Source: a virus
Taxonomy: Duplodnaviria; Caudoviricetes
IMG/VR virus record: IMGVR_UViG_3300025838_000035
Location: 14,778 to 78,777 of that record
DNA: 64,000 nucleotides
Reading direction: 5' to 3' (one strand)
Part shown: piece after piece, positions 6,201 through 54,296 of the stretch
Numbering within the stretch: position 1 is the first letter of the stretch
Layout: each line of letters opens with the position of its first letter
Notes under the pieces: generated by a model
Database searches by the model: none
What the model saw: only the letters and a program-made list of their open reading frames with translations
What the model was told of the DNA's origin: nothing
Program-made: the position numbers and the translations under genes

Positions 6201-6225
6201 GTATGGTGAAGCCGCTTCATCATAC
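6201..6225. promoter_or_regulatory. 25-bp pseudo-palindrome site 1
   Basis: GTATGGTGAAGCCGCTTCATCATAC; overlaps the -10 of a minus-strand promoter. Confidence 0.7.
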
Positions 6226-6248
6226 TTTGAATGATGAGTCCGACTCAA
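6219..6248 (-). promoter_or_regulatory. Sigma70-type promoter embedded in palindrome sites 1 and 2
   Basis: TTGAGT-N18-TATGAT pointing into the cloverleaf elements. Confidence 0.45.
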
Positions 6249-6253
6249 CATAA
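6229..6253. promoter_or_regulatory. 25-bp pseudo-palindrome site 2
   Basis: GAATGATGAGTCCGACTCAACATAA. Confidence 0.75.
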
Positions 6254-6282
6254 AAAAAGGGAGAGACTTTTGATCTCTCCCT
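6252..6282 (-). terminator. Intrinsic terminator
   Basis: AGGGAGAGA-loop-TCTCTCCCT then a T-run, downstream of 6332-6616. Confidence 0.8.
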
Positions 6283-6331
6283 AAGGCTTCTTTACAAGGA
6301 GGAAAAGAAAGCAACTATGGAGGCTATTTTA

Positions 6332-6616
6332 CTACACCTTGGCCAATATGTCCAATGCTTGCTCTACAGACTCCACAATAGCCAGTACGCCACCCGTCCA
6401 ATCGTCAAAGAACTTCTGCTCCGCCTCGGTTAATTTCCTACCGCTAGGCGGTTTATTGCCATCTTTGACCTCAAATAACAACGTCTGCCCCAAGTAGCCT
6501 ACCAATAAATCAGGTATCCCGTCCCCCTGAGAAATGATCCGAACCGTAGCCCCTTGCTTACGCAAAGCCTCTACGATCTCATTTTGATTGGCGTCAATTC
6601 TGTTGGCGTATCTCAT
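6332..6616 (-). CDS. VRR-NUC / PD-(D/E)xK resolvase-like nuclease
   Basis: MRYANRIDANQNEIV...GIPDLLVG...LFEVKDG...LTEAEQKF. Confidence 0.85.
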   Translation of the reverse strand: MRYANRIDANQNEIVEALRKQGATVRIISQGDGIPDLLVGYLGQTLLFEVKDGNKPPSGRKLTEAEQKFFDDWTGGVLAIVESVEQALDILAKV

Positions 6617-6622
6617 ACCGTA

Positions 6623-6663
6623 TTTATACCACAATTGCAAAACAATAATATATGTGGTACATT
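6623..6663. promoter_or_regulatory. Divergent promoter region with TACCACA/TGTGGTA inverted repeat
   Basis: Plus strand TTGCAA-N17-TACATT; minus strand extended -10 TGGTATAAA; point of gene divergence. Confidence 0.6.
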
Positions 6664-6692
6664 ACACTCCCACTCAACACATAGGAGGAAAC

Positions 6693-6926
6693 ATGACAAG
6701 GAAACAAATAGCTGAAGAGAATGTCATAGCTGGTAAAGAAAGGGCGGTAGAAATTACAAACTTTCTATTTGCGAATCAAACCGATGAATACATAACGGAT
6801 GTTTTGGGTTTAGCCATTACTTATGTTTCAATGGGATTAACCGCTGGTTTAACTGGTGTTCAATTGATAACCATCATAGGCGCTACGCTTGACGAGGCAC
6901 ACGAACCAAATGGGACGATGCAATGA
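6693..6926 (+). CDS. Hypothetical protein
   Basis: AGGAGG RBS, start MTRKQ. Confidence 0.7.
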   Translation: MTRKQIAEENVIAGKERAVEITNFLFANQTDEYITDVLGLAITYVSMGLTAGLTGVQLITIIGATLDEAHEPNGTMQ

Positions 6927-7141
6927 ACAAAGAACAAAAAGAAGAAGTGGAGGCTAAATACAAAATAGCAGAAATGAACATGAAGTCTTACCAACTATGG
7001 GAAAACTATAGATGGGACAAGGCAAAGAATCCGTTTGAGGCTTGGCAAGAATTTAAGAGATGGCGTCCTAAACGCCACGTTGTTGTCAAAGAATACTTAG
7101 ACGCAAAAGAGTTATTAATGAAAGCTAGAACCAAGGAGTAG
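6923..7141 (+). CDS. Hypothetical protein
   Basis: 72-aa coupled ORF. Confidence 0.65.
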   Translation: MNKEQKEEVEAKYKIAEMNMKSYQLWENYRWDKAKNPFEAWQEFKRWRPKRHVVVKEYLDAKELLMKARTKE

Positions 7142-7143
7142 AA

Positions 7144-7317
7144 ATGACAGAGACAGAATTTAGCAGATTACTTGTAGACGCATTCAGGTACAGATGGCTT
7201 AGAAAAGAATATGCTGCTGGTCGAGAAACAGATCTTGCAGAAGGATTGCCGACTGAAGAAGATCTCGATAACTATATAGACAGGAAAGCCATCAATGAAA
7301 CTCACGAACAAGTTTAA
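7144..7317 (+). CDS. Small protein with DAxRYRWLR motif
   Basis: Hand translation MTETEFSRLLVDAFRYRWLRKEY; AAGGAG RBS. Confidence 0.65.
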   Translation: MTETEFSRLLVDAFRYRWLRKEYAAGRETDLAEGLPTEEDLDNYIDRKAINETHEQV

Positions 7318-8188
7318 TCTACCACAGACGTTTGTTAATGTGATCAAACGTCCTACTTACTCAAAAGGTAAGTCACACATATCAGCTACTGAGCTGATTA
7401 ACAGTCCCAAGATTGTTGCGCTTAAACGTGAGCATTGGGAAGAGCTAGAGCAAGATGCATCAGAGATGGTGTGGGCACTATTCGGCTCAGCCGTTCACGG
7501 CATATTGGAGCATGGCAAAGGGGATAACCATATCGTTGAAGAGCGCTTGCACATCGAGGTAGATGGTTGGAAGTTATCAGGAGCTATTGATCTACAAGAA
7601 GTTGAAGATGAAGGCATTGTGATCAAGGATTACAAAGTAACTGGCGCATGGGCGGTGATGAATGAGAAACAAGACTGGCACGATCAGCTCAACATATACG
7701 CTTGGTTGGTAGAAGCAGTAAAGAAGAAACCAGTTAAGAAGTGTGAGATTGTTGCCATCATCAGAGATTGGTCAGCTAGAGAGGCGCAGAACAAAGAGGG
7801 CTATCCTCAATCCCCAGTAGCGGTTATTGATATACCGATATGGGATTTTGAGAAGAGAGATACGTTTATCAAAAGCAGAATAGCAGCACATGCATCAGCA
7901 CAGTTTGAACTTGATTCAAACGGGGAACTACCAAATTGCACAGAGTCCGAGATGTGGGAAAAGCCTACACGCTATGCAGTAAAGAAGAAAGGAGGAGTAA
8001 GAGCAAAGAGCGTACATGACACAGAAGAAGACGCACAACACATTCTCAATCAAATGGGCAAAGACTATTTTATTGAGATAAGACAGGGTGAGAGAACGAG
8101 GTGTGAAAGCTATTGCCAAGTAGCACCATTTTGTAAACAGTACAAGGAGTATAAAGATGCCAAGGAAACCAACCAATTGGAGAGCTGA
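7295..8188 (+). CDS. Cas4-like PD-(D/E)xK exonuclease
   Basis: GSAVHGILE, LSGAIDL...IKDYKVT, QLNIYAWL, terminal C..YCQVAPFC Fe-S-type cysteines. Confidence 0.88.
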   Translation: MKLTNKFNLPQTFVNVIKRPTYSKGKSHISATELINSPKIVALKREHWEELEQDASEMVWALFGSAVHGILEHGKGDNHIVEERLHIEVDGWKLSGAIDLQEVEDEGIVIKDYKVTGAWAVMNEKQDWHDQLNIYAWLVEAVKKKPVKKCEIVAIIRDWSAREAQNKEGYPQSPVAVIDIPIWDFEKRDTFIKSRIAAHASAQFELDSNGELPNCTESEMWEKPTRYAVKKKGGVRAKSVHDTEEDAQHILNQMGKDYFIEIRQGERTRCESYCQVAPFCKQYKEYKDAKETNQLES

Positions 8189-8399
8189 ATATATTGAGGC
8201 TAAAAAAATAGGCGAGCTACATAAGCAAGCCAACGATGCACTTCACCTTGAAATGGAGAAACAAATCAAGAACTACGACAAGATGATTGTTGATTCTAAA
8301 CGCTTAAGAGAAATGCTTTACGAGCAAAGAGGCGTAATAGGATTTCTTGAGGCTAAGATTGAAAAGCTAGTGGAGAGTAAAAATGAACATAACGCTTAA
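8157..8399 (+). CDS. Coiled-coil hypothetical protein
   Basis: 80-aa ORF in the operon. Confidence 0.6.
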   Translation: MPRKPTNWRAEYIEAKKIGELHKQANDALHLEMEKQIKNYDKMIVDSKRLREMLYEQRGVIGFLEAKIEKLVESKNEHNA

Positions 8400-8826
8400 C
8401 TTTGAAAACCATAAAGAGCACGTTGATTATTGTTTGCTCATTGTAAGAAGTTTTTATAGTGGCCAATTGATTTCTATTGATGAATTCAAAAGGCTTGAAA
8501 GTTTATACAACGAACAAACTGCATTACTTAATCAAGAAAAACAAAAGTTAATTCATTGGGAGAAACTTTACGGAAAACACAAAAAGACCATAGAAGAAAT
8601 TGAAGAACGAATCAAAAATGCCAAAAAGATAGAGGATATGAATTTAACTTTAAGAACATTCAATTGTTTGAAGGCAGTAAAAGTCAATACAGTTGACGAA
8701 CTGATAAATCATACTGAACAAGAATTGTTAACCATACAAAACTTTGGCAGAAAATCACTTAACGAGGTTAAAGATAAATTAAGAGAAATGAATCTTTCTC
8801 TATTATCAAGAAGGGTAAATACATGA
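8383..8826 (+). CDS. Protein with RNA polymerase alpha-CTD domain
   Basis: IEDMNLTLRTFNCLK...ELLTIQNFGRKSLNEVKDKL closely follows the RpoA CTD consensus. Confidence 0.88.
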   Translation: MNITLNFENHKEHVDYCLLIVRSFYSGQLISIDEFKRLESLYNEQTALLNQEKQKLIHWEKLYGKHKKTIEEIEERIKNAKKIEDMNLTLRTFNCLKAVKVNTVDELINHTEQELLTIQNFGRKSLNEVKDKLREMNLSLLSRRVNT

Positions 8827-9506
8827 CTGTACATAAAAAACTAATGCAAGCTAGAGTTAAATTACTCGACACAAAGCTTGAGAAGTCTGGCCACAACAAG
8901 TTTGCAGGCTATAAGTATTTTGAATTGGGGGACTTCTTGCCTCCCACTACAAGGATATTTAACGAGCTTGGACTATGCGGTGTGATCACGTTCACAACAG
9001 AGTACGCTACGCTTAACATCACAGACGTTGACGATGGATCAATGATTGTCATCACTTCACCTATGGCCCATGCGGAGCTCAAAGGCGCACACGACATTCA
9101 AAATCTTGGTGCTTGCGAAACCTACCAAAGAAGATACCTATGGTCTGCTGCGATGGAGCTCACAGAGAATGACCCTATTGATGCGACTGCTGGATCAGAA
9201 CCACCACCTAAGCCAAAGGCAGAACACAAACCCAAAGCTCCTCCTGTTATAGAAGGTAAACCTGGCGAATGGCAAATCAAGATCGAATCCAAGACAGACG
9301 ATATTGACGTATGGGCAGACGTAGTGATCGAAGCTGCGGTCATGTTGGCGGAAACGGCTAAAGAACCCCAACATGTAACAAAGATCTATCAGGTCAACAA
9401 GACCATCATGGACGCCTTGAAAGAGGCTAAAAAAGATAGATTCGATCAACTCATGCTAGATTTCAAGAACATCAAAGACAAACTTACAGAGGCACAAAAT
9501 GGCTAA
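8823..9506 (+). CDS. ERF-family single-strand annealing protein
   Basis: KSGHNKFAGYKYFELGDFLP, QNLGACETYQRRYLW. Confidence 0.88.
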   Translation: MTVHKKLMQARVKLLDTKLEKSGHNKFAGYKYFELGDFLPPTTRIFNELGLCGVITFTTEYATLNITDVDDGSMIVITSPMAHAELKGAHDIQNLGACETYQRRYLWSAAMELTENDPIDATAGSEPPPKPKAEHKPKAPPVIEGKPGEWQIKIESKTDDIDVWADVVIEAAVMLAETAKEPQHVTKIYQVNKTIMDALKEAKKDRFDQLMLDFKNIKDKLTEAQNG

Positions 9507-9789
9507 TCAATTTCCCAATAGCGGTAAACTTTCCCCAAACAAGTACAAAGACAATCCAAAGAAACCTGATATGACAGGTGAATTGGTAATGACCAAAGAC
9601 GCCATCAAAGAGCTATTGGCAGAAAGCCCTGCTGATGAAGTCACCATCAAGCTAGGCGCATGGAAGATGCAAGGTGCTAATGGAGAATGGGTACGCTTAT
9701 CATGGAATAACTACAAGCCCAAAGCACCAGTTAATCCATACGTTCAGCCCAAGCAAGACACATTAGATGACTCGGATATTCCCTTTTGA
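9499..9789 (+). CDS. Single-stranded DNA-binding protein (short phage type)
   Basis: NSGKL...KKPDMTG...GAW and acidic DDSDIPF tail; follows ERF. Confidence 0.75.
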   Translation: MANQFPNSGKLSPNKYKDNPKKPDMTGELVMTKDAIKELLAESPADEVTIKLGAWKMQGANGEWVRLSWNNYKPKAPVNPYVQPKQDTLDDSDIPF

Positions 9790-10202
9790 CCATGCAAACG
9801 ATTCAATATGAGGCAATCAAGGTAGCATTAAAGCAAGATAAGACTGGCTTTATGCTCACCTTGAACATACACCCAGACGATATACCTGATGATCTTGTGC
9901 GTGACTTTGTAGGCGCAAGGTATCAGGTAGTTATGGTTCGGCTTGACGCTGAAGACAAACCAATGGATAGAAAAGAGAACATGCGTGATCCAGTCAGACT
10001 GGCAGGCATACTCTGTAAAGATCCTCTGTTCCATGAATTCTTACATGAATCAGGAAACATCTTTGTGAAAGACGAAGACTCAGTAGTCAAATGGTTGAGA
10101 GAGGAACTAAAGATCCTTTCTCGCACCGAGCTCAAGCACAACATAGAAGCTGCAAAGCAACTATTTACAATCAATGAGGAATTCAAAGCATGGAAAAACT
10201 GA
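9786..10202 (+). CDS. Hypothetical protein
   Basis: 138-aa coupled ORF. Confidence 0.7.
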   Translation: MTMQTIQYEAIKVALKQDKTGFMLTLNIHPDDIPDDLVRDFVGARYQVVMVRLDAEDKPMDRKENMRDPVRLAGILCKDPLFHEFLHESGNIFVKDEDSVVKWLREELKILSRTELKHNIEAAKQLFTINEEFKAWKN

Positions 10203-10492
10203 TTCCGTATTCAGTCCATTTGCCTGAAGATATCTATATCCAAATGAAAGCCGCTGCTGGAGAACGAAAGGGCTCAGCATTGATCAGAGAGGCGCTAACG
10301 TCTTATCTGTCGGGCGGTTCAGAGCTTGAAGCTGGATATACAAAAGGCATTAACGACTGCATCAAGGTAATCCTGAAGGATCCTTTTCTTTCAGGATTGT
10401 CCATCAAGAACAAGGCAATGGACTTGCACTTGGCATCACAACTCCAATCACTTCATAGGAAAAGCAATGGCAAGAAAAAAAGAGGGGATTGA
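10190..10492 (+). CDS. Ribbon-helix-helix DNA-binding protein
   Basis: YSVHLPEDIY...SALIREALTSYL, CopG/Arc-like pattern. Confidence 0.65.
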   Translation: MEKLIPYSVHLPEDIYIQMKAAAGERKGSALIREALTSYLSGGSELEAGYTKGINDCIKVILKDPFLSGLSIKNKAMDLHLASQLQSLHRKSNGKKKRGD

Positions 10493-10667
10493 ATTGCTAC
10501 GCCCCAAGCAAGACCCTGTACCAATAGAACAGATCACTCTATTGGATTGGTATGCAGCCTTTGGAGCTAACTGTATCAGCATGATACATGACGATCCAGA
10601 GCTGAACGCCAAAGCGGTGTTTGAATTTGCAGACGCTTGTTTGCGTGAACGAGCACTAAGAGTTTGA
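10467..10667 (+). CDS. Small protein (LxDWxA family), distant paralog of 62718-62930
   Basis: TLLDWYAAFG...FEFADACLRER. Confidence 0.6.
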   Translation: MARKKEGIELLRPKQDPVPIEQITLLDWYAAFGANCISMIHDDPELNAKAVFEFADACLRERALRV

Positions 10668-10942
10668 ACAATCAACTAAATGCCAAAGAGAGAGCGTACG
10701 TCAGGCTTGTTAAGAGTCTGCCGTGCTCTGTCTGCGATGCATCAGGCCCAAGTGATGCACACCACGTTAAGCAACATCGTCAATACACCGTTGTTGCCCT
10801 CTGTAAATCATGCCACCAAGGAGCCATCATGGGTTGGCATGGCCAGAAAAGAATGTGGGCTATTAAAAAAATGGACGAGATGGACGCCCTTGATATCACG
10901 ATTCAACGTGCGATCAAGGAGCTTTCTTCAGCGATTTTCTAA
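10664..10942 (+). CDS. HNH-like zinc-binding nuclease (DUF968/Ref-like)
   Basis: LPCSVC...DAHH...VALCKSCHQG. Confidence 0.75.
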   Translation: MNNQLNAKERAYVRLVKSLPCSVCDASGPSDAHHVKQHRQYTVVALCKSCHQGAIMGWHGQKRMWAIKKMDEMDALDITIQRAIKELSSAIF

Positions 10943-13900
10943 TTTCCTCAGCATGTTGTGCAACCTGAGATATCAACAGATCTAAACGTTGAATCTCTTG
11001 TTGCTTCTGCTCCCCAGTCATTGACCTGTTCTGTGGGTTAGCAATCTGTAACTTCTGCTTACGGATACTGGCAATATCCTTGGCAGTCTTATCGTATAGC
11101 TTAGCCAGAGCAATATCGTCTTTCTTCTCAGTCAATATCTCTTTGACCTTTTCCGATTGACCCAACTCGGCATAGTGCCTCATGTCAGCATAAGACTCAG
11201 ATATCCTCTGATTGTTCTGATAGAAGTCAGTTACATAAGTAGACTGTGTTGCAGGCAACTTCTGAACAAAGCCCAAGCTCATGCGCTTAGTCCAGTCAGC
11301 ATCAGGATATACACCATCGTTAAACGGCATCATGGCGTATTGGGAAGTAGTCTCAATCGTACCGCCCAACCACCCCATGTATCCACGGATCATGTAGTCA
11401 ATCTGTACTGGAGAAAGCTCCGTTCCCGCTATGGGAGCAAATACATGGGACACACCACCCAAAGCCTTAGCGATAGCACTTGTATCGTTGCTCACACGCT
11501 CTTGCTTGGATAGACGCTCCATACCAGCAGTCTCGATAGGCGCATTGGTAAATGAATCCTTATTTGCATAAACGTCCACCAAAGGCTTGAAGAACTGAGG
11601 AGTAGGATTCATAGAGAATGTCTGGAAGACCATGCGCTGAATGCTATCTCCAAACACTTTACCCTCTACGCCCTTATCAACGATCTGCTCCAAGCTGCGC
11701 TCAGCCAATGTACCAAATGAGCCAAACTCGAAAGGCTTAGGAATGCGAAACACTTCATTTGTTCCTGGAATCTTGAACCACCAGAAGAAGTCACGATCCC
11801 ATTGCTCACGTTTCTTGAAGTCTTCATCATCTTTGAACGCCATGTACAAAGCCATAGACGCCAAAGTAACTGCGCCTGCGACAGTAGAAAACGACTTGGC
11901 TTTCTGTATATCGTCCTGAATGATTGGCTTACCTGTAGCGGTGTTGTAAAAAACACGAACAGTAGGGTTTATCCCGTCCCGACCAAGCTTGTACAAACCC
12001 TGTAGACGAGCATTCAAGAACGGAACGATCTGAGACAAGTAACGAATAGCGCCTGATGATCCACTCATGGAGAAGTCCATCAAGTCACGAGCTTCGAAAC
12101 TAGCTTCCAAGTGTGTCTTGCCTTCAGCTCTGAGCTTCTTATACAAGGCTATGCGGTTGATGTTCTCTGAACGGTTACCAATCTCTTCATACTTGTGCCA
12201 AAGCTTCTTGAGGAAGTGTTCGACCTTTTCTTTGGTATCGACAATGTTCTCACCGTTCACACCACTAGCAAGCAGTTTCTTAACCACTTGACTGCGATCA
12301 CCCTCTAGCGTTGTTCCGTAGTTGAATACGCCACCACCAGCCAAAGCAGCGATATAAGTAGCGGAACCTGGCTTACTGTCAGCAAAACCATCATAGACAT
12401 TCTTAACAAAGTTGTTGGACAAACCAGACAAACCAGCAGACTGAATCGAATCCTTGATCAAGTTACTGGCTTTAAAGGCAGGAGATAAAGTGACGCCAAA
12501 CCGCAAGTAGTTCTTGAAGTTCCTCATCACATCCAAGACCTTAGACTGTGGCCCAAGGTATGTAATAGCCCCAATAGACTCTAAGAGCATGGGATCATTC
12601 ACATGGAAGTAGGCATCCTTACCATTGATCAAAACCTTAACGGTATCCTTGCCTGAATCCGTCATGCTGACCAAATACTTTTTGCCGTCTTCATCTACAC
12701 GCTCTTGGACAACATCACCGTTTCCTACGATTTTGCCACTTTCAGCAGAGTGAACTGCACCGTCAGCCCAGTAAAGACCAGGCTTCAAGTTAGGAGTAAC
12801 TGCCCCTTGACCAGAGGCATCTTGGATAATCGTGACCGCTGCTTGATTCTTCATCGAGGCAGACAGAATGTGTGACCAGTTACGCATCACGTTTTCCATC
12901 AAATCCCCAAATGGCTTTTCATTCTGACCTTTGAGCATCTTAGAGAATTGCTGATTGGTCAACCTAGACGCAGCTCTAATGGACTCAATCTTTCCATCTT
13001 CCATCGCACGATAGAAAGGAATATAGAAAGCGTCATTGGCAAAGCGCTCATAGGCTTCTTTATCAATCGTCCCTGTATCTAAGGCTACGTCCAGAACAGA
13101 CTTGTTAATGGCCATCATGTCTTTGCGAGCTTGCTCATAAAGCTTAGCCCTAGACACACCATTCAAGTCACCCTTGATCAAGTCATTGCGCTGAGAAACC
13201 ATGCTCGACAAGTTGGGAGAACGCTTTTCATCAGGCAGATTGGCTTCTCTGTTCAAAGCCATCCAGACTTGGAAACGATCTACTTCCTTACCAAGGGGAG
13301 CAAGAGCTTGCATCAAGCCCTTGTGATTGTCCCCAGTTTTAATATTCAAAGCGCCATCATCAAGGAACGCATGGCCATAATGCAAAATACCCTCCAAAGC
13401 TCCGTCAGTAGCCTTGGATAAACGGGCTTGCATGTAGCCGATAGGCGAATAGTCTTTAACCGTCCTCAGCTCATCAACCATCTTCTGAGCCAATGTGTTC
13501 CAGAAGTTACCCTTCATACTTACAACACGATCCAATATCGTCTTATTGGGAGCATAGAACGTACTCTGAATCTGTGACGTTAGCTTAGGATCAACGCCTG
13601 CAAAGGCATCTACATTCATGGGAGAACGCTTCTGTAGGGCTTGCTGAACCTTATCCCCCAAAACACGACCTGCTTCATGGGCGGTCATCATCTTAAGGTA
13701 GTCTTCCTCTTGATGGGATATTGAGTCCGACTCAACATACTTTTGGTAGGAAGGCATATTCATCAAACGATCCATCACACGATCTTGAGGATCCTGATGT
13801 TCGTATAACGCATCCATGATAGCCTGTGGCCTAGACTTGCCTTGAGCAACGCCATTCAGAATAGATGATCTAACCTGACTGGCATCAGCAGTTACATTTG

Positions 13901-24339: not shown

Positions 24340-24779
24340 ATCATTGCCTTGGTTTTATACTTAGGAATGTCAGAAGGAAGTATTCGTGCTCCCGACATTT
24401 GTAATGCTTTCGTTAATGATGAGTCGGACTCAGCATCATAAATTACTTTAATGCCCTTGCTACGCAAGAAATTTAGGAAGTGATGAACAGAAATATCAAA
24501 GTTATGTGGATTGTCTTCTGTGAAAAAATGAAACTGCGCTATGTTTTGACTTAGGATTTTATAAGCCATTACAGTATCTTTATAGCGCATAAGCTTTACG
24601 CCTTGCTGCAATCCAAGCAATACCGCTTTCATTGCCTTTTGGACTGGGACATTATGGTCAGCAAAATACTTTTTGAGGATATATGCAGTAGAGTTTGTAT
24701 CGGAAACGTTAGATCCACGGCTACCCATTGCCGTTTGAAGTAAGTGCATTTCCCCAGTATCTATTCCACCACCAGCCAT
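24336..24779 (-). CDS. Hypothetical protein
   Basis: 147-aa coupled ORF. Confidence 0.65.
   Translation of the reverse strand: MAGGGIDTGEMHLLQTAMGSRGSNVSDTNSTAYILKKYFADHNVPVQKAMKAVLLGLQQGVKLMRYKDTVMAYKILSQNIAQFHFFTEDNPHNFDISVHHFLNFLRSKGIKVIYDAESDSSLTKALQMSGARILPSDIPKYKTKAMI
24414..24438. promoter_or_regulatory. 25-bp pseudo-palindrome site 4 (intragenic)
   Basis: TAATGATGAGTCGGACTCAGCATCA; encodes DAESDSSL. Confidence 0.7.
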
Positions 24780-27817: not shown

Positions 27818-28408
27818 TTAGGCGCTTAAAACCGCAAGAGTTTTAGCAGTTAATTCCTTGCGTTCATTCAGTCCAAACAAACCACCATTGATTCTCTTAC
27901 AAAGCGCTTCATCATTATCAACTAAGTTATTGCACCCGTGCGTAGCCCAAAACCAACCACCACTCATTGCTGCATACATAGGTGTTTTTACCAAGTCTGG
28001 ATTCTTTACAAAGTCCTGACCAAGGGCTTGGCCACAATGCCAGTAGTTATCGTGAAAGGTGAGCTGGATCGTACCTCTTCCCCTGTACAAAAAACCGTCC
28101 CCACTTGCCTCATTCCTATTACCTCCACGATTAGCGTAAATGCGGTTGGCAATCTTTTGAGGTTGATGGGCAAAAAGGGCATACTCCTCTGGTTTAAAGT
28201 GAGTATGAAAGAGAGCTTGAAGGGTTTCAGCTCTATAGTTTAAGTTCTCTTCCAAAGTGCGGAAGTGATTGCATTCATGGGAAAGCTGACCAATAAAAGC
28301 CGCCTGCTCTTTAACGGTAAAGATGTTGAACTTTGTGATCGTTGCATTAAGTGGCTCAACCCATTCTGGCCCAATCTGTAAGGCATGAAGCTTTTCAACT
28401 GTAATCAT
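27818..28408 (-). CDS. GH19-family endolysin
   Basis: AAFIGQLSHEC...LEENLNY...YRGRGTIQLTFHDNY...KRINGG..GLNER. Confidence 0.92.
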   Translation of the reverse strand: MITVEKLHALQIGPEWVEPLNATITKFNIFTVKEQAAFIGQLSHECNHFRTLEENLNYRAETLQALFHTHFKPEEYALFAHQPQKIANRIYANRGGNRNEASGDGFLYRGRGTIQLTFHDNYWHCGQALGQDFVKNPDLVKTPMYAAMSGGWFWATHGCNNLVDNDEALCKRINGGLFGLNERKELTAKTLAVLSA

Positions 28409-28977
28409 TTCACACCCTCATTCACGGTCTTCATCACTTCGTTGTATTGGCTAATGCAGGCATTGAGCTTGACGATTGCTTTGTCTCCGTCTGCTGCGAT
28501 GGAGACAATATCTTTAACAGTCTGTCTGTTAGATTCGGCTCCATTGGCTTGATCTCCATTGGGGGCATCTGCACTGGCTTGTACACCACAGGTGGAGGGG
28601 AGGCGCAACTCGCCAGCATCAATGCGAGCATTAATACTAGCTTGCTTTGTTTTGATATCATTTTTAGCCTGCTTTAATTGACTGGTGGCTCTTGAGAGCT
28701 TTTGTCCGAGCTCTGCTTCTTTTGCCCGAGCATCTCCATTAAGGCGCTCAATTTCTGCTTTATCTTCTGCAACCCGTCTTTCATAGCCGTGATGATCTGA
28801 GACATAGTAACCTCCTAATATAAACAAAACTGCTCCAGCAACTTTTATCAAAAGTGCATGAGCTTTTAACAACGGGAAAATGCCCGCAAAAAAACCAACT
28901 ACAAAAATGGCCATACCGCCAAACAAGGCGGCCAACGCCAAATAATACATGATGTTACCGAATAGCCAACTAATCAT
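28405..28977 (-). CDS. Rz-like inner-membrane spanin
   Basis: N-terminal TM segments, coiled coil, AADGDKAIVKLNACISQY tail; adjacent to the endolysin. Confidence 0.8.
   Translation of the reverse strand: MISWLFGNIMYYLALAALFGGMAIFVVGFFAGIFPLLKAHALLIKVAGAVLFILGGYYVSDHHGYERRVAEDKAEIERLNGDARAKEAELGQKLSRATSQLKQAKNDIKTKQASINARIDAGELRLPSTCGVQASADAPNGDQANGAESNRQTVKDIVSIAADGDKAIVKLNACISQYNEVMKTVNEGVK
28434..28661 (-). CDS. Rz1-like outer-membrane lipoprotein spanin embedded in Rz
   Basis: Alternative frame within Rz; lipobox LALMLASC then Pro-rich ASPPPVVYKPVQMPP. Confidence 0.8.
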   Translation of the reverse strand: MISKQSKLVLMLALMLASCASPPPVVYKPVQMPPMEIKPMEPNLTDRLLKILSPSQQTETKQSSSSMPALANTTK

Positions 28978-34952: not shown

Positions 34953-35606
34953 TTACACCGTTTTTACTGCAATCCATGTTGCCGATTGAGTATCGTTAAC
35001 ATTTTCCCAAAAGTATCTACCAGCAAATGAATCAGTTGTTGAAATTGATTCTACTGTATTACCCACGAATTTACTATTGCCACCAACAACATCTGACAAA
35101 GTAACTGGCTCTGAAACCGCCCCAACAAATACACCTCGCATAGTAAAGTTGTCAGAGAAATTAATGGTTTCATTTACAGAACCATTTTGACCTCTAAATG
35201 CAGTTATGGCATCGCTTAAAGTAACAGTTTCAGATACCGATCCTGAAAAAGCTATACCTCCAACTTGTAAAACAGTTAAAGTTATAGTATCTGCAATAGA
35301 TCCTGCAAATGCACCTGCACCTGTATACGCATCAGAAAAGCTAAATGATTCAGGAACGGTTACATAAGAACCAAATCCACCTGTCTCAGCATCCGTAACT
35401 GTAATACTATCTGTTACAGTTTCATAGAAAATGAACGTTGCGGGCTCTAAATCTGTTAAGCTGAACGACTCAACTGTAGCTCCAACAAGGTATGATGAAG
35501 CGGACTCAACATCCGATAGCGTTACAGTTTCTGTAACCGCAACGGCATTGATAACAGTCGGATTCCCCGCAAAAGATGTTGCAGAAAATGATGTTATCCC
35601 AAACAT
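34953..35606 (-). CDS. Repetitive virion structural protein
   Basis: MFGITSFSATSFA, repeated VxETxTLSD units. Confidence 0.7.
   Translation of the reverse strand: MFGITSFSATSFAGNPTVINAVAVTETVTLSDVESASSYLVGATVESFSLTDLEPATFIFYETVTDSITVTDAETGGFGSYVTVPESFSFSDAYTGAGAFAGSIADTITLTVLQVGGIAFSGSVSETVTLSDAITAFRGQNGSVNETINFSDNFTMRGVFVGAVSEPVTLSDVVGGNSKFVGNTVESISTTDSFAGRYFWENVNDTQSATWIAVKTV
35490..35514. promoter_or_regulatory. 25-bp pseudo-palindrome site 5 (intragenic, hybrid half-sites)
   Basis: GTATGATGAAGCGGACTCAACATCC; encodes DVESASSY. Confidence 0.6.
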
Positions 35607-44705: not shown

Positions 44706-44750
44706 TTAATATTACTACTTTTTAAAATTAATGCAAATGTTTTTTACAAT

Positions 44751-44777
44751 AAAAAAGCCCCACTTTTTGGGTGGGGC
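44751..44777 (-). terminator. Intrinsic terminator after MCP
   Basis: GCCCCAC-loop-GTGGGGC-TTTTTT. Confidence 0.82.
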
Positions 44778-44802
44778 CAAAAGCTCAGGGGGGAGCTTTT
44801 AA

Positions 44803-45705: not shown

Positions 45706-45720
45706 TTGTTAGCTCCTTAA

Positions 45721-46608: not shown

Positions 46609-46625
46609 TTTGAACTCCAAAAGTT

Positions 46626-47078: not shown

Positions 47079-48034
47079 TATTGATTCTCCAAGTTACGTT
47101 TAGCATCAGCATATTGTTGTGGGGTTAAACCTAGTTTCTTGGCTATTGCCATTTCACTCTGTTTCATTTTGACCACTTTCGAAGCGGTGCTTCTAGTCGC
47201 GGGGGCCACAACAGTGCTCGGTTTTGTACGAGTTTCGCTTTTCTCTTCAACTGGTTCATCAAAACTTTCTGGGAACCGCCTACGCATTGTCTTGTCTAAC
47301 GTTGAGTAGTATGCTTCAGAGCCAACTGCCACACCTTGCCTCTCTAGTTTCCTATGAAGGCCAAGAGCTGCTGCTGTCATTTCCTCGTCTTGTCCGAACC
47401 AAGGATTTCGTTCCTGCCATTCCTGCGCTTTTCTGTCAGCACGGGGAGCTTGAACTTGCTCTTGTTGCGTTTGTACCTCAAATTTTTCCTCCTGTAAAGG
47501 GGGCATTTTGAAGCTTTGCGCTTGCAAAAGGCGCAAATTCGCTTGTTGCATCTTGTTTTGAGCTTCAACAATAGCGTCTGTATCACCAGACTCATATGCC
47601 TGTTTATAGGCATTTTTTGCCATCTGAAGCTCAAGATTTGCTGCATTATTGAGGGTATTTGCGTACTCTTGACCCCCAGATTGCAACATTCCCTTGATGC
47701 GTTTGTTCTCTTCTAGCAAACGTTGCGCTAAAGTGACGGCCTGCTGTTGCTCTCGCTGTGCGGCTTCCTTCTCTCTACGCTCGTCATGCCACACTCGCTT
47801 CATTTGAATGAGCTTGTCTTTGGCATCTTTGCTATATTTGTCGAGATCATCTGTCTCGACTTCAAGATTCTTGACAAATTCTTGCGGAACGGGCTTGCGG
47901 CCACGGTCTTCTGGAGGAGTATCGTCCTCAATTTCAATTTCAACGGATGATGAGTCCGACTCATCATTCACTTTAGTATTACTTTCTTCAAGTTCATCTG
48001 GAAACTTGAAGTCAAATTTATCATTTTCAGCCAT
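47078..48034 (-). CDS. Scaffolding protein
   Basis: Acidic N-terminus, long coiled coil, WQERNPWFG, AKKLGLTPQQYA tail. Confidence 0.78.
   Translation of the reverse strand: MAENDKFDFKFPDELEESNTKVNDESDSSSVEIEIEDDTPPEDRGRKPVPQEFVKNLEVETDDLDKYSKDAKDKLIQMKRVWHDERREKEAAQREQQQAVTLAQRLLEENKRIKGMLQSGGQEYANTLNNAANLELQMAKNAYKQAYESGDTDAIVEAQNKMQQANLRLLQAQSFKMPPLQEEKFEVQTQQEQVQAPRADRKAQEWQERNPWFGQDEEMTAAALGLHRKLERQGVAVGSEAYYSTLDKTMRRRFPESFDEPVEEKSETRTKPSTVVAPATRSTASKVVKMKQSEMAIAKKLGLTPQQYADAKRNLENQ
47945..47969. promoter_or_regulatory. 25-bp pseudo-palindrome site 6 (intragenic)
   Basis: GGATGATGAGTCCGACTCATCATTC; perfect 10-bp arms; encodes NDESDSSS. Confidence 0.75.
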
Positions 48035-48044
48035 GTTCAGCTCC

Positions 48045-48449: not shown

Positions 48450-48636
48450 CGTCCGAATGCTCCATTTTCTTTTTCAAGTCTAATATGTTTTGTCGTGCGA
48501 CCAGCAGACCTCGTATCTCGCCGCACAAATTTAAATACTCAGAATAGTCTTTGGCTTGCCCGCTAGCTAACCAATCCTTGAGCATTACTACATTTGATTC
48601 CAGTTGTTGTACCAGAACATCTGATGCATCCATCAC
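48442..48636 (-). CDS. Small conserved head-region protein
   Basis: LASGQAKDYSEYLNLCGEIRGL. Confidence 0.7.
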   Translation of the reverse strand: MMDASDVLVQQLESNVVMLKDWLASGQAKDYSEYLNLCGEIRGLLVARQNILDLKKKMEHSDDE

Positions 48637-51266
48637 TCTCCTTTAGGTTTCTTACTTGCCATTCGCTCTTGATGTTTGACCTGCATGATTGACTTCATGC
48701 CGTCTGCAACAAGCTCGTCCTTAGCCCGAGTATCAGCAGTTCTGTCTGCTAAATACTGCTTGGCCATCTCAACACCATGAGCAACCGAATCGGAATGCTT
48801 TTTGGTCTTGATCTCTGCCACCTTGGAAGCTGCTTCCATGTGTATCTTTTTCTCACCTATTTCATTAGCTTGTTGTCCAAGCATATGTTTAGATGCCGTT
48901 TGCGCCATTGCAATTTGTTGCTTAGATTGGTTTTGCGCCATAGCCACTTGTTGTTGTGACTGAATACGCATCTGCTCAATCTGCAACTGCTGCTGCTTGA
49001 TCTGCAACTGCATTGCATCCATCTGGGCTTTCTGCTGTTGGGCTTGAGCCTTAAGCTGCAACTCTTGTTGTTGCATCTGAATAATTGGATCTTGCGCTTG
49101 TTGTTGAGCTTGTTGTTGTGCTGCTTGACCTTGAGATTGTTGTAACAATCTTTGAGCCGCCTGAGCAAGCAACGGAGCCAATTGAGCTTCCACCTTGGGA
49201 TCCATCTTTTCCTGTTCGCCAGACTCGTCTGTCTGTGGAGGTAATGCAAATCCTAGTTGTTGCTCAATCTGCACCCTATACTCAAAGCCAATGTGCTCAT
49301 TAATATGAGCCATAAGTGCTTGAGTAATAAGAGGAGCTTGTGGGTTACTCTGCAATAATTGTTGGGTTTTTGGATCCTGCATTGCAGACATATGGACTGT
49401 AATGTGCGCCTGATGATCCTGATAAGAAAAAGCTTTAAGCGGTTTCATTACCAAAGCGTTTTGATTCTCCGTGACTGGATCAGTCGGAGCTTGGTCTTCA
49501 GCCATAGGAATCAGCTTGTTAACATCCTTAATACCTAAAACATCAAGCATCTGCTTATGCAATAGGGGCATGTTATATAGCTGAGGAGCCTGTGAAGCTA
49601 ACTGTAAAACCGCCTGATATTGAACAATCTTCTGCGCCATCGTGGACGCATTAGGATCAGCTACTGGGATTACATCGACATTGTGATAGTCAGATTTCTT
49701 GGCTTTTCTACTACCTTCTTCAGGATCATAGTCGTAATCTTCAGGCGTATAGTCAGCAATGATCTCCTTCAAAAGACCCAACTCTTGCTGCATCGAATAG
49801 TAAATTCGAGCCTGAATAGCAGTCGTTACCTTTAGCGTTCTCTCCAAAATAGCCAAAGTCGTACCAACTGGAGACTGTCCAGACATATCACTAATCTGCA
49901 AGTCAGCCGTATTAGCAAAGCGTCTTCCGTCTTCAACGATCTGATTCAACAAAGCCATCAATACTTGGCTAGGTTCCTTATAAGGCAACGGCAATAAGTT
50001 GTCTTTAATAGATCCGCTAGGAACGTCAACGTCCCTGAACTCTCCAGGTGCAATCGGTGTATCGTCACCTTTCACCCTCAAGCCACGAGTCTTGAATCCA
50101 CCAGGCAAGTTACTCAGCGTACCCGCATCAACCAACTGTCTAATTAAAGACGTACCAGACTTGGCAAAAGCTCCAATTAAATGGATCAAACCAAAGTGAT
50201 AGAAACCAAATCCAGGTACATATCCATAGTGGACAAAATGCTGTCTCTTGGCCTTAGTCGGATCATCTGGTGACCAGTTTCTCCTTACCGCCAATACGCT
50301 TGTAGTACCTTTTTCAATCGTAACTATATAAGGCAAAGCAATGCCAGTCGGCTCACCATGCTTATCTACATCTTCAAATCCAGGTAAATCCAAGTCCACA
50401 TGGATCTCTAATACCTTGTATCTATCGTCCGAAGTAGCTCTAAAGCCAAGCTTTTCAGCAATCTTCTTCTCGACTTCATCTAATATATTATCTGGGTGAC
50501 CGAGATCTACATCTCTATAGAAACCAGCAACCTGTAATCTTCTCAACTCATTTTCCGTCTTCCTCATCACATGAGTAATACGGGGAGCACTCTCTAAACT
50601 ACTGGCTCCATAAGGAACAACCACATCCTCGGCAGGAGCAAACATCGACACCTGTCTTCTCATATGGGGATCGTAATACACTTTCTTAAATGCATTACCC
50701 GCTAACCCTAGGCCCCACAACATCCTCTCATGCTCAGGACGGTACTCTTTCATAACGTCCATCAACTGATAGTTCATGTCATTCTGAACTCGCTCAGCAG
50801 CTTCCTTCTTAGCCTGAGTCTCTTTCCCAACGATCTGAGTCTTTACTGGCCCAGCCGCAGGAAACGTACTCATCATTGTTTCAGCTTGGAATTTGACCAA
50901 AGCCTCAGCCAACAACGGGTGAAACACTCCACATGCTCCCTCCCAAGGCTCCGTCCTCTCCTCAATCTTCAATCCCAACAACTCTAGTCCATCGACATAA
51001 GTCTGCATCCATTCTTTTCTAGACGCCAAGTCAGAATCAAAATCCCCAATCAATTCTGTCGCAATACTCAATAACTCCTGCTCTCCAATGAAGTCAGCTA
51101 AGTTATCGTCAAAAGCAATATCGTGATCCTTGCCCATTTCAATATCCAACCCATCAGCGTGAATGCTCACACTCTCAGGATCTTCTATCTCTATCTCTAT
51201 TTCTGGGCCATCGTTTAATAAATCTTCCAGTCCACTAGGAGCCCGATTAAGTGCTTTTTCCAACAT
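48633..51266 (-). CDS. Portal protein (P22-like) with Gln-rich C-terminal barrel
   Basis: SRKEWMQTYVDGLELLG..EPWEGACGVFHP...AGTLSNLPGG..PLPYKEPS. Confidence 0.92.
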   Translation of the reverse strand: MLEKALNRAPSGLEDLLNDGPEIEIEIEDPESVSIHADGLDIEMGKDHDIAFDDNLADFIGEQELLSIATELIGDFDSDLASRKEWMQTYVDGLELLGLKIEERTEPWEGACGVFHPLLAEALVKFQAETMMSTFPAAGPVKTQIVGKETQAKKEAAERVQNDMNYQLMDVMKEYRPEHERMLWGLGLAGNAFKKVYYDPHMRRQVSMFAPAEDVVVPYGASSLESAPRITHVMRKTENELRRLQVAGFYRDVDLGHPDNILDEVEKKIAEKLGFRATSDDRYKVLEIHVDLDLPGFEDVDKHGEPTGIALPYIVTIEKGTTSVLAVRRNWSPDDPTKAKRQHFVHYGYVPGFGFYHFGLIHLIGAFAKSGTSLIRQLVDAGTLSNLPGGFKTRGLRVKGDDTPIAPGEFRDVDVPSGSIKDNLLPLPYKEPSQVLMALLNQIVEDGRRFANTADLQISDMSGQSPVGTTLAILERTLKVTTAIQARIYYSMQQELGLLKEIIADYTPEDYDYDPEEGSRKAKKSDYHNVDVIPVADPNASTMAQKIVQYQAVLQLASQAPQLYNMPLLHKQMLDVLGIKDVNKLIPMAEDQAPTDPVTENQNALVMKPLKAFSYQDHQAHITVHMSAMQDPKTQQLLQSNPQAPLITQALMAHINEHIGFEYRVQIEQQLGFALPPQTDESGEQEKMDPKVEAQLAPLLAQAAQRLLQQSQGQAAQQQAQQQAQDPIIQMQQQELQLKAQAQQQKAQMDAMQLQIKQQQLQIEQMRIQSQQQVAMAQNQSKQQIAMAQTASKHMLGQQANEIGEKKIHMEAASKVAEIKTKKHSDSVAHGVEMAKQYLADRTADTRAKDELVADGMKSIMQVKHQERMASKKPKGE

Positions 51267-51268
51267 AA

Positions 51269-51703
51269 TTAATCCTTATTTTTTGCAGTTCCAGTCGTGT
51301 TATGACTCTTATCATCCCAGTCATAACCCACTGATGTAGGTTCCCCTTTTAACCATTTCTGTATGGATAAAAAGCAACCCCCTCGTTCCCCAAATTTCCC
51401 ACCGTGCCATGCAGTCGGCAACACCCTTATCGTATCACCAAGTGACGTCTGAGAAAACACCTGATCGTCACAACTAAACTCAATGTCCCCCGTCATAAAC
51501 ACTTCAAACGAATCTACATTTGGGTGTATATGCGGCTCAATCACAGAATTAGGCTTTACAGTAAACAATTGCACCTGATAAGGCGCATCCCTAAACAACA
51601 CCACGCCATGAAGATTCCCCGAATAATCCAATCCCATTTCCATAGGACTATTGATCGGTCGATGCGCCATCCAATAATTCATAAACTTTTCTAAATCATC
51701 CAT
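51269..51703 (-). CDS. Cupin-fold protein
   Basis: IEPHIHPNVDSFEVF...PTAWHGG. Confidence 0.7.
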   Translation of the reverse strand: MDDLEKFMNYWMAHRPINSPMEMGLDYSGNLHGVVLFRDAPYQVQLFTVKPNSVIEPHIHPNVDSFEVFMTGDIEFSCDDQVFSQTSLGDTIRVLPTAWHGGKFGERGGCFLSIQKWLKGEPTSVGYDWDDKSHNTTGTAKNKD

Positions 51704-53193
51704 TAGTAATATGGAACCTTTCTTCTAAAGTGTCTTGGCTCATCTTCTTCATCTGTATCCAACCTCAAAAACCCACCAGCCCTAAACCGAATCAAAGCCT
51801 GCGTACTGCTATCCACCAAGTCATCATGCTCACTATTTGGAAAACTGGCCATCTGCTCAACAACCTCATCCGCCCACCTCGTCTCAGGACACCACACCTT
51901 CCCCGACCTGAACAAGTCCGTCACAGAATTCAACCTGACAAACTTATCATTCCCCCTCGTAGGAGTAAACTCACTCACAGGTATCCCCATCCTCCTCAAC
52001 TCAAAGATCAACGGACTACCCGCAGCTTTTGCCTCAATGATAAAAGCATCAGGACTCCACTCCCGATAATAACTATAAGCCGCTTCCTTCAGCTCAGGAA
52101 ACTCCATCCTCCTTTGCACCGCATCCAACAAAATCACGTTCACATCATTGGGGTCTTCATTCAAATTAAACACCCCCCATGTCGTACACGCACTATAGTC
52201 AGACCTCTCATTCTTCGTAAAAGCCGTATCCCATGACTGAATAATAAAACTGCAAGGAGGCGGTCTATCTTCCTTCCATCTCCTCCACCACTCCCTCTTA
52301 ACCAACGCCCCCTCTTCACCAGTCGGCCTTTGCTGATATTGAGCATTCCACTTAGATATTGGCAACTCATCCCTCAGCGCACTCAGCTCATCCAAACTCC
52401 AAAACTCTGGCCACAAAGGATTCCCATTCGGCATGATCGCAGGCAACTCAATCAGCTCCCACTGCTCACCCTTCTCCCTCTGTATCGCATCCCTCAATAC
52501 CCGACCCGTTAAATCCCCATCCCCCCAACGGGTCATCACAATCACAATACTCCCACCTGGCTGTAAACGTTGCCGCGGCCCAGACGTATACCACTCATAA
52601 ACCTTCGCATAAACATCAGGATTCCCCGCCGCCATAGCAGCTTCCTGTTCTGAATGCGGATCATCAATAATCAACAAATCCGCACCCTTACCCGTTACCG
52701 TACCCCCAACACCAATCGCAAAATATTCCCCATTCTTATTCGTACTCCACCTACCCGCCGCCTTACTATCCTGTCTCAAATTTACCTCTGGAAACACAGT
52801 CTTATACTGCTCACTCCCCACCAAGTTCCTAACCTTCCTACCAAACCCAACCGCTAACTCAGCAGTATTCGAACACTGAATCACCTTCTTACTAGGGTAC
52901 TTACCCAAAAACCAACTAGGCAATAAATAACTCGCAAACTCACTCTTTGTATGACGAGGCGCCATATTGATAATCAACCGCTTACTCTCACCCCTCGCAA
53001 TAGCCTCAAACTTTTTCGCCATCACCGAATGATGCCTACCCCCAACAAACCCAGGCCACATCATCTTCACATACGCCATAAAACTGTCCTGAGCCTCCTC
53101 CCTCAAGACACTCTCCTTCACCGCATACACCTTCTCCATGAATGCTTCATATTCATCCTTACTTAACTTCGATATCAATTCTTCTAAATTCAA
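51703..53193 (-). CDS. terL: Terminase large subunit
   Basis: INMAPRHTKSE, GKGADLLIIDDPH, QSWDTA, IEAKAAG, HDDLVDS. Confidence 0.95.
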   Translation of the reverse strand: MNLEELISKLSKDEYEAFMEKVYAVKESVLREEAQDSFMAYVKMMWPGFVGGRHHSVMAKKFEAIARGESKRLIINMAPRHTKSEFASYLLPSWFLGKYPSKKVIQCSNTAELAVGFGRKVRNLVGSEQYKTVFPEVNLRQDSKAAGRWSTNKNGEYFAIGVGGTVTGKGADLLIIDDPHSEQEAAMAAGNPDVYAKVYEWYTSGPRQRLQPGGSIVIVMTRWGDGDLTGRVLRDAIQREKGEQWELIELPAIMPNGNPLWPEFWSLDELSALRDELPISKWNAQYQQRPTGEEGALVKREWWRRWKEDRPPPCSFIIQSWDTAFTKNERSDYSACTTWGVFNLNEDPNDVNVILLDAVQRRMEFPELKEAAYSYYREWSPDAFIIEAKAAGSPLIFELRRMGIPVSEFTPTRGNDKFVRLNSVTDLFRSGKVWCPETRWADEVVEQMASFPNSEHDDLVDSSTQALIRFRAGGFLRLDTDEEDEPRHFRRKVPYY

Positions 53194-53414
53194 TCTTTCT
53201 TCCTCACAAACTTAATATATACCGGCCTTACACTCCGCCTATTCTTCATCCTCTTCACCGCACCTAACTTCTCCAGCCGATCAATGATCTTCTTCACCCC
53301 ACTCACACCACTAACCCCCCGTATCTGCGCTATATCCCTATAACTAGGACTACACGCATACTTAACCCAATACCTCTCAATGATCTCATAAACCTCACTC
53401 TGCACTGGCGTCAT
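53190..53414 (-). CDS. LexA-type winged-helix DNA-binding protein (no peptidase domain)
   Basis: MTPVQSEVYEII...SPSYRDIAQIRG...KIIDRLEKLGAVKR, like the LexA N-terminus. Confidence 0.75.
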   Translation of the reverse strand: MTPVQSEVYEIIERYWVKYACSPSYRDIAQIRGVSGVSGVKKIIDRLEKLGAVKRMKNRRSVRPVYIKFVRKKD

Positions 53415-54196
53415 ATACCCCCCATCGTATGGAACCCACTACTTTTCATAGGGGGAGGGTTTTCCCTGGTGTATGTTGAGTCGGACTCATCATGCGAATT
53501 AGGGGGTGGGGGGTCACTTTGTAAATTTTGGGATAGGGTGTCTGGAATAGTATGTACCTCATTCAGGGACTCCTGAACGCTATTTGGGGGGGTCGGGGAT
53601 GCGCCCTCGCTTGCTGCCACATCTTCGCCTGGGTAGCCCGTCAATTCTGAAAGTAGAGAATGAGCTTCAACATCGACAATATCATTAGAGCTATCCCTCT
53701 TGAGCAGTCGCTTGATCTCTTCGAGCAAATCGTCTTTAGCCATTGTTGAATGCTTAGCTTGTTTTTCTGTTGTTTGCTCTTTAAACATATCGACACCAGT
53801 AATGGAGCCAATTACACGAGACGCATTGATCTTGTCGGAATGCTTAGCTCCATCATCTAATAGAACTTGAGCCAAACTATCCACAACCAATGCCCTCAAT
53901 TGTGGGGGCGCATAATACGCACTACGCTCTACCGCCAGTCTAACCCGTTCTATCTCTAGGGAAATTTTAGGCGTATTTGCCAACTTATGTGCATCTACAC
54001 CTATTACGTTAGGATTTGCCTTAGTGTTATACGTCTTCCTATATGCATTGGCTTTGCTCTCCCCATTGATTACGATCTCTTTAACAAAGCGCTTTTGTTT
54101 TTCTGTTAATTGTCTCTCCGCCTTATTACTGATGATTGAGCTTATTGGTATTTGATCTAATGCTTCATTGATCTGGTCTTTTGTCATCTTATGCAT
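53411..54196 (-). CDS. terS: Terminase small subunit
   Basis: LTEKQKRFVKEI...ANAYRKTY HTH; upstream of terL; disordered Pro-rich tail. Confidence 0.82.
   Translation of the reverse strand: MHKMTKDQINEALDQIPISSIISNKAERQLTEKQKRFVKEIVINGESKANAYRKTYNTKANPNVIGVDAHKLANTPKISLEIERVRLAVERSAYYAPPQLRALVVDSLAQVLLDDGAKHSDKINASRVIGSITGVDMFKEQTTEKQAKHSTMAKDDLLEEIKRLLKRDSSNDIVDVEAHSLLSELTGYPGEDVAASEGASPTPPNSVQESLNEVHTIPDTLSQNLQSDPPPPNSHDESDSTYTRENPPPMKSSGFHTMGGI
53471..53495. promoter_or_regulatory. 25-bp pseudo-palindrome site 7 (in terS 3' end)
   Basis: GTATGTTGAGTCGGACTCATCATGC; encodes HDESDSTY. Confidence 0.75.
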
Positions 54197-54271
54197 AACT
54201 GCTCCGCTTCGCTTAATTGGGACAATTGTATGGTGAACAAACGATTAAAACAATACAGACCGCCCGATTTT

Positions 54272-54296
54272 GTATGTTGAGCCCGACTCATCATTC
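54272..54296. promoter_or_regulatory. 25-bp pseudo-palindrome site 8 (intergenic, upstream of terS)
   Basis: GTATGTTGAGCCCGACTCATCATTC. Confidence 0.72.

Follow-up and report, generated by a model that had tools for sequence, protein, structure and literature searches.

The stretch of viral DNA analysed here (the window, 64,000 nucleotides) comprises bases 14778–78777 of its own IMG/VR record of 78,777 bp, designated G000, and belongs to a tailed freshwater phage of the Caudoviricetes. It contains eight copies of a 21–25-bp palindrome, all located at 6201, 6229, 13716, 24414, 35490, 47945, 53471 and 54272. These palindromes are probably the operators of a 74-residue winged-helix protein, encoded between terS and terL, which would act on its own gene, on the promoter of a noncoding RNA and on the late operon. 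An earlier reading of the letters alone, the original prediction, had reported the eight copies, attributed them to one dimeric protein, preferred parS-type or genome-organising sites and named four candidate binders: a ParB-like protein, a LexA-like winged-helix protein, TerS and a ribbon-helix-helix protein.

A family of palindromes maintained at the DNA level

The palindrome follows the pattern ATGWTGAGTC-N-GACTCAWCAT, in which two 10-bp half-sites flank one central base. All the predicted copies are present: seven of the eight match the consensus with at most three mismatches, a level of agreement absent from 100 dinucleotide shuffles, and the eighth, at 24414, has the same perfect 13-bp core as the others. 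A symmetrised 25-bp matrix, scanned over the full record, recovers precisely these eight sites at 29.7–38.3 bits, and the next-best position scores 8.3 bits. The matrix finds none in the window at 1–6200, a longer site-free stretch than the 1–3111 noted before, and none at 54297–64000 or in the first 14.7 kb of the record, ahead of the window. The sites are the following.

6201–6225: palindrome copy 1, the proximal one of a tandem pair; it supplies a minus-strand −10-like TATGAT
6229–6253: palindrome copy 2 of the pair, the centres being 28 bp apart; it supplies a −35-like TTGAGT and abuts the T-run of a terminator
13716–13740: palindrome in the gene for a 2351-residue virion protein, at codons ~1410–1417; the alignment of homologues breaks there
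24414–24438: palindrome in the 3′ part of a gene for a 147-residue protein; the next start codon is 75–100 bp downstream
35490–35514: palindrome in codons ~31–39 of a gene for a 217-residue protein; one half-site is a GAAGC variant
47945–47969: top-scoring palindrome, in the acidic N-terminal linker of a 318-residue head-module protein (phrog_28737)
53471–53495: palindrome in the codons for the C-terminal tail of the terS-like product, 57–81 bp upstream of the winged-helix gene; a clade-conserved position
54272–54296: intergenic palindrome upstream of terS, in a divergent control region; the position is also occupied in the related genome G001

The five intragenic copies share the reading frame GAG-TCN-GAC-TCA and do force near-identical peptides, as had been proposed. 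These are of the form x-E-S-D/A-S (YVESDS, DAESDS, DVESAS, NDESDS and HDESDS), and ES[DA]S is found nowhere else in the whole proteome. The copies lie in poorly conserved acidic stretches or linkers. Shuffling of synonymous codons with the peptides kept gives on average 0.38 coding matches, with a maximum of 3 in 200 shuffles, against the five observed. An exact-pattern scan of IMG/VR returned six short contigs that are 97–98% identical to the window and serve as a within-species check only. In these contigs sites 47945 and 53471 are unchanged, and the changes in site 54272 fall at W or N positions or go toward the consensus, with 13–20 differences per 300 positions in its flanks. The gap in the matrix scores, the shuffle results and the within-species substitution pattern show that the sites are real and kept at the DNA level.

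The sites are symmetric in the manner of paired half-sites, not of a stem. Arm position 6 (W) is non-complementary in six of the eight sites, and the folding energy varies across the family from −1.0 to −12.4 kcal/mol, the lowest stability being that of site 35490 with its four broken pairs. Neither the compensatory pairing of a hairpin nor the T-run that follows a terminator stem is a property of the family, the intragenic copies having no T-run.

The winged-helix protein and the palindromes of related phages

The conserved site at 53471 lies within the last of three adjoining genes.

51703–53193, minus strand: large terminase gene (terL)
53190–53414, minus strand: 74-residue stand-alone homologue of the LexA N-terminal winged-helix domain, between terS and terL; the proposed binder
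53411–54196, minus strand: terS-like gene, 261 residues; the rival candidate binder

The 74-residue protein matches Pfam family PF01726 at 27.8 bits (cut-off 23.7), and its family profile finds LexA chains at an E-value of ~2e-5 over 63 positions. The AlphaFold2 model, with a predicted local distance difference test (pLDDT) score of 90, contains three helices plus a wing. The best Foldseek matches of this predicted model are the LexA–DNA complexes 3JSO and 3JSP, with a TM-score of 0.80 and a root-mean-square deviation of 1.5 Å. The protein does not contain the S24 peptidase/dimerisation domain with its Ser-Lys dyad, and therefore no RecA-triggered cleavage is expected.

A profile search of 1.84 billion representatives yields 5806 relatives at E≤0.001, most of them stand-alone proteins of 60–130 residues, and a word search finds no longer fused form. 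Some homologues of 150–190 residues contain two LexA-type domains in tandem (P0048, P0059, P0065, P0068 and P0076; L117:3001–3474), which would fit a two-unit binding mode. One tandem two-domain homologue is encoded directly upstream of a primase gene. The 74-residue protein has no match in cultured phages by tblastn, and its gene has none at E up to 1 in the cultured phages 023Pt_psg01 and HTVC027P.

Relatives were collected with terL as the anchor, which gave 80 related loci with a total of 785 kb. A homologue of the 74-residue protein is encoded upstream of terL in 76 of them, and the gene is present in a single copy in each of six clade genomes. The matrix of the G000 motif finds nothing above 14 bits in the 80 relatives. 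Since the G000 sequence is not conserved, each relative's own palindromes were sought. A palindrome score of at least 9 is found in the 340 bp upstream of the gene at 33 of 66 loci, compared with 1 of 330 windows drawn at random from these loci, so that palindrome and gene are linked throughout the clade. The palindromes vary greatly and span 14–29 bp. Many have the form TGNNAACGTTNNCA, TAGAAA-N10-TTTCTA is typical of one group and TTAACA-N1-2-TGTTAA of another, and that of G005 is 29 bp. In some relatives 3–5 tandem copies occupy an AT-rich spacer upstream of the gene. Across the loci, identical 74-residue proteins are accompanied by identical palindromes. The site sequence is limited to this phage species, and the arrangement is common to the clade.

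Several relatives also contain dispersed copies of their own palindrome: six in G001, six in G002, 4–6 in G003, two in G005 and further copies in G006 and G010. In G002 (L090–L093) the sites at 5379, 16857, 16884, 20785, 36975 and 49572 each combine a ACATTAAC half with a ACTTTAAC (or ACTCTAAC) half. This one-base asymmetry is present in all six, which are therefore not strictly two-fold symmetric, and its orientation is not consistent. In G001 (28821), G005 (35538) and G004 (13778) a copy is placed exactly at the junction where the recombination genes converge with the 3′ end of the gene for the giant virion protein. G000 has no copy at this junction, its nearest one being 13716, inside the gene. 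In 023Pt_psg01 and HTVC027P, both of which are without the 74-residue gene, a search for a dispersed palindrome family gave chance-level groups only, and the hairpins upstream of terL are single copies.

Conservation of position in relatives, one of the points on which the original prediction was to stand or fall, is seen for part of the sites. G000 and G001, the site sequences of which are unrelated, have three positions in common: one before the winged-helix gene, one before terS and one just beyond the terminator of a small nuclease gene. In all six genomes in which both places can be read (G000, G001, G002, G003, G006 and G010), the palindrome before the noncoding RNA is the same as that upstream of the winged-helix gene. 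The intragenic positions are the part that did not hold (see below). The positions that are conserved best are ordinary regulatory ones: before the regulator gene, before terS and over the promoter of the noncoding RNA. Just two of the proteins that occur in all six genomes, TerS and the winged-helix protein, have their genes beside a site. Of the four candidate binders, the LexA-like protein is favoured by the comparative evidence.

The tandem pair, the proposed circuit and its alternatives

The tandem pair at 6201 and 6229 lies between a nuclease gene and a conserved noncoding region.

6258–6282, minus strand: intrinsic terminator of the nuclease gene (6332–6616); its T-run continues into palindrome copy 2
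6219–6248, minus strand: promoter-like TTGAGT-18-TATGAT made by the two palindromes (a consensus match)
5819–6143, minus strand: structured, conserved noncoding region that follows the tandem pair directly

On the minus strand the nuclease gene (6616–6332) is followed by its terminator (6282–6258), by the two palindromes, which cover a −35-like and a −10-like element as predicted, and by ~660 bp without a convincing open reading frame. Parts of this ~660-bp stretch are conserved in G002, G003 and G005. In the alignment the terminator T-run and the block from near AACACGCATGGGGATTG are conserved, and the palindrome between them is each phage's own. The noncoding core pattern occurs in at least 119 IMG/VR contigs, and the element is also found at L101:3185–3330 and L204:6938–7138. 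The consensus fold of ten sequences has 17 pairs, four of them with compensatory changes, and contains a closing helix GUUGGUG/CACCAAC around a hairpin with the loop GUUAGCG. Rfam returned nothing for the noncoding region at the gathering threshold or at E up to 1. In G002, G003, G006 and G010, and at several further loci, the conserved start of the RNA is preceded at a distance of a few bases by an extended −10-like TGnTAnAnT, which the distal palindrome half supplies. A site that overlaps core promoter elements is in the classical position of a repressor operator, and the noncoding RNA is probably the regulated target. At many loci a strong TTGACA/TATAAT promoter and another conserved block come after the noncoding RNA.

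In the proposed circuit one phage-encoded, sequence-specific dimeric protein would read all eight sites, in agreement with the original prediction and with their two-half-site symmetry. The centres of the half-sites are about one helical turn apart, and therefore two winged-helix units could share one face of the DNA. We infer from the sequences that the 74-residue protein is this binder, that it binds as a dimer and that it represses. Bound at 53471, upstream of its own gene, it would regulate itself, and it would also bind at 54272, upstream of terS. A pair of bound proteins at 6201/6229 would repress the minus-strand promoter leading into the noncoding RNA and the gene block beyond, because it would cover both the −35 and the −10. 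The five copies within the 43-kb late operon would probably be extra holding or road-block sites, which is the least certain step. These copies may lie in tolerant acidic linker codons because the genome has almost no intergenic space.

Several observations weigh against this circuit. The role of the intragenic copies is the weakest part of the model. Road-blocks in an operon that itself holds the regulator gene are not an obviously useful design, and the intragenic positions are not kept in L011, the nearest distinct relative, where 13 kb contain one copy. The 74-residue protein has no evident dimerisation domain, and comparison of its third helix with the sites revealed no recognition code. 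Proteins that are 95–97% identical can be paired with sites differing in spacing or inner bases, and pairs of proteins merely 40% identical can have a common half-site. Three distant homologues have no palindrome upstream of their genes, a result that is uninformative for this clade. The promoter-like consensus matches are no more numerous than in shuffled sequences. The TerS gene is as near to the conserved site as the winged-helix gene, and partial Mantel tests of motif similarity against winged-helix and TerS identity do not discriminate between the two proteins (partial r of 0.09 and 0.12, both with P ~0.06).

The last points bear on the proposal that the palindromes are packaging-specificity sites read by TerS, alone or with a winged-helix adaptor, the pair around terS being pac and the phage-specific sequences preventing cross-packaging. 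The location of the regulator gene between terS and terL, the single universal site at the 3′ end of terS and a unique, conserved C-run/G-run hairpin adjoining this site are all compatible with such a function. The two predicted flanking copies do bracket terS, 53471 lying within its 3′ end and 54272 lying 76–100 bp before its start, and two sites bracket terS in G001 as well. TerS has an N-terminal helix-turn-helix region and is more variable than the winged-helix protein, and motif similarity follows TerS equally well. However, six further dispersed copies, including the pair over the promoter of the noncoding RNA, fall outside a pac model, and several initiation sites would produce heterogeneous ends. 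Six genomes keep the site before the RNA, and its position over the promoter is easier to explain for a transcription factor than for a packaging protein. Relatives that have terL but not the winged-helix gene also have no repeat family, and simple two-fold palindromes are not known to be read by TerS rings. A packaging role is on this evidence unlikely. The sites could also be operators read by some other phage protein or by a host factor. No code links the recognition helix to the site, and several small early proteins have no annotation. A host factor, though, cannot account for palindromes that differ from one close relative to the next; of the proteins common to all six genomes, none but TerS and the winged-helix protein is encoded beside a site; and a homologue of the first early gene next to 54272 is limited to G005. 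Such a reader is accordingly improbable too. The ribbon-helix-helix candidate (10190–10492) has neither a family match nor a site nearby and was set aside.

The preference of the original prediction for parS-like loading or organising sites, bound by the ParB-like protein (61651–62421), was not borne out. Residues 1–137 of this protein match phrog_1033, a ParB-like partition protein, at an E-value of 5e-16, and the plasmid prophage N15 is known to have centromere-like palindromes at dispersed positions. The ParB_N score, however, is 16.5–21.7 bits (16.5 in G000) against a cut-off of 26.3, and Pfam gives no helix-turn-helix in the protein, just weak coiled-coil-like matches. ParA (PF13614) is absent from G000, G001, G002 and G005, with all control genomes positive, and in the same four genomes the nearest site is several kb from the gene. 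Integrase and resolvase (PF00589 and PF00239) are absent and no prophage copies were found, and therefore there would be no plasmid state that requires partition. The gene also adjoins a DNA methyltransferase gene: at 60347–62421, on the minus strand, the ParB-like protein (a weak ParB_N match with a coiled-coil tail) is encoded directly upstream of a 435-residue methyltransferase, a pairing which a nuclease or modification role fits better than partition. Sites of the parS type are consequently very unlikely. Equally little speaks for replication-type iterons at which the winged-helix protein would mark one or more origins in the manner of lambda O. Residues 12–67 of the protein match weakly to phrog_270, a replication initiation protein, some relatives have the tandem copies in the AT-rich spacer described above, and some sites lie within coding linkers. 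But the G000 copies are dispersed and unclustered, the protein has nothing beyond the DNA-binding fold, and the primase and helicases are encoded in the site-free part of the genome. The least probable explanation dispenses with a protein and takes the palindromes as RNA or DNA hairpins, serving processing, stability or termination, or as a small mobile palindromic element. Some copies fold stably (−11.7 and −12.4 kcal/mol), and site 6201 departs from the consensus symmetrically in both arms. The non-complementary position 6, the nearly unfolded site 35490 and the missing T-runs of the intragenic copies contradict this; structure alone would not need one sequence in all copies of a genome; and there are no flanking duplications or element ends.

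Provided that the palindromes are operators of the winged-helix protein, protein and palindrome might further form a fast-diverging specificity pair in virulent freshwater phages, which we offer as speculation with little expectation that it is correct. The pair could define an immunity-like group without lysogeny: protein already made in an infected cell would shut the RNA and early promoter of a superinfecting phage and block its late operon if that phage were of the same type, whereas a variant type would escape. As an alternative, it could be a titration timer, in which the sites of each genome would soak up protein during replication and so time the switch to late expression. The noncoding RNA, under the control of the protein, would then serve as the effector arm. 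Podophages of the HTVC023P-like group rank with the most abundant aquatic viruses, and to our knowledge nothing is known about the control of their gene expression. The operator model offers a specific circuit, open to testing, for a large freshwater part of the group, made of a 74-residue LexA-type protein, a phage-specific operator, a noncoding RNA as a target and sites coded in linkers. The variety of operators among close relatives also represents a natural series for studying how winged-helix specificity changes.

Known systems and genome context

The arrangement resembles the stoperators of Cluster A mycobacteriophages (L5 gp71, Bxb1), where one phage DNA-binding protein has many dispersed sites, most of them outside promoters, with 20–30 repressor sites per genome (PMC6550527). 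The consensus of these sites differs between related, heteroimmune phages and tracks the repressor (PMC6550527). Copy numbers above chance are found in the present phages as well (eight in G000, six in G001 and six in G002). Stoperators differ in being 13-bp asymmetric sites, oriented with transcription and located in short intergenic gaps of temperate phages (PMC6550527), whereas the sites described here are two-fold symmetric, 21–25 bp long, number 2–8 per genome and lie for more than half inside genes. Neither an asymmetric, oriented site nor a temperate life style is seen here: no lysogeny genes were found, and the putative binder consists of a LexA N-terminal domain only and is encoded in the packaging module.

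The 17-bp palindromic repeat of Cluster O mycobacteriophages, TGTTCGGNNNCCGAACA, is likewise dispersed and has an odd centre, and the passages of the report that concern it identify no binder (PMC4351075). It differs in being common to the whole cluster, and the same passages describe no link to a regulator gene or to the promoter of an RNA (PMC4351075). The 74-residue protein shares the fold and family of its DNA-binding domain with LexA, which binds as a dimer to a palindromic operator of ~20 bp, the SOS box (PDB code 3JSO), but the site described here is not CTGT-N8-ACAG, the SOS-box pattern of E. coli.

The principle is not new: mycobacteriophages, P1 and phiC31 all have families of dispersed operators. 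The operators of P1 C1 and the CIR sites of the phiC31 repressor are both cases of many operators for one repressor across a phage genome. Both phages are temperate, the P1 operators are asymmetric, and the protein families differ from that of the 74-residue protein. The iterons of lambda O are palindromic, phage-specific sites for a winged-helix dimer, located in the flexible-linker codons of the O gene, but they are grouped at a single origin, and their reader is an initiator with two domains. Specific to the present case are the protein made of the LexA N-terminal domain only and its place in the packaging module, the symmetric sites with copies in linkers, the apparently virulent phage and the noncoding RNA as a target.

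Megablast of the window against cultured phages gives no DNA match. The large terminase is 47–56% identical to those of phage 023Pt_psg01, of the Pelagibacter phages HTVC027P and HTVC023P and of cyanophage MinM2 (tblastn, cultured phages), and ~600 IMG/VR contigs encode a terminase at 70–82% identity. The relatives of terL in genome collections are exclusively on phage-sized contigs of metagenome-assembled genomes; nothing points to a prophage state, and the phage is apparently virulent. No tRNAs were found. The gene blocks of the window include the following.

6588–10942: recombination genes, including those for an exonuclease and Erf
10914–54196, minus strand: packaging, head and tail block in a single minus-strand run, including the terS-like gene, terL and the genes for the portal, the major head protein and the 2351-residue virion protein
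54362–57949: small early genes
58007–63967: genes for a primase, a helicase, the methyltransferase and the ParB-like protein

The hairpin between terS and the winged-helix gene (53414–53455, minus strand) consists of a C-run and a G-run and is followed by TATAT(ATTTT). It occurs once per genome and is conserved in the clade, with the corresponding location occupied in G002, G005 and many loci. Its possible roles are those of a terminator, promoter or packaging signal. The C-runs are also where several contigs from metagenomes stop. Contig ends pile up 370–570 bp upstream of terL, at C-runs, which may be an effect of assembly and was not used to define termini. At 54272 and 53471 the palindrome is separated by 41 nucleotides from TACAAT or TACGAT; this spacing is absent at the other sites and in G001 and was likewise not used.

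Bases 1–~13000 of the record contain plus-strand tail genes, the products of which are 82–87% identical to those of window positions 27818–28977, in inverted orientation. This duplicated-looking stretch has no copy of the palindrome. The genomes of the relatives measure 60–67 kb compared with 78.8 kb for G000, and the record is probably either a chimera in which two related phages are joined or the result of a duplication of the tail module.

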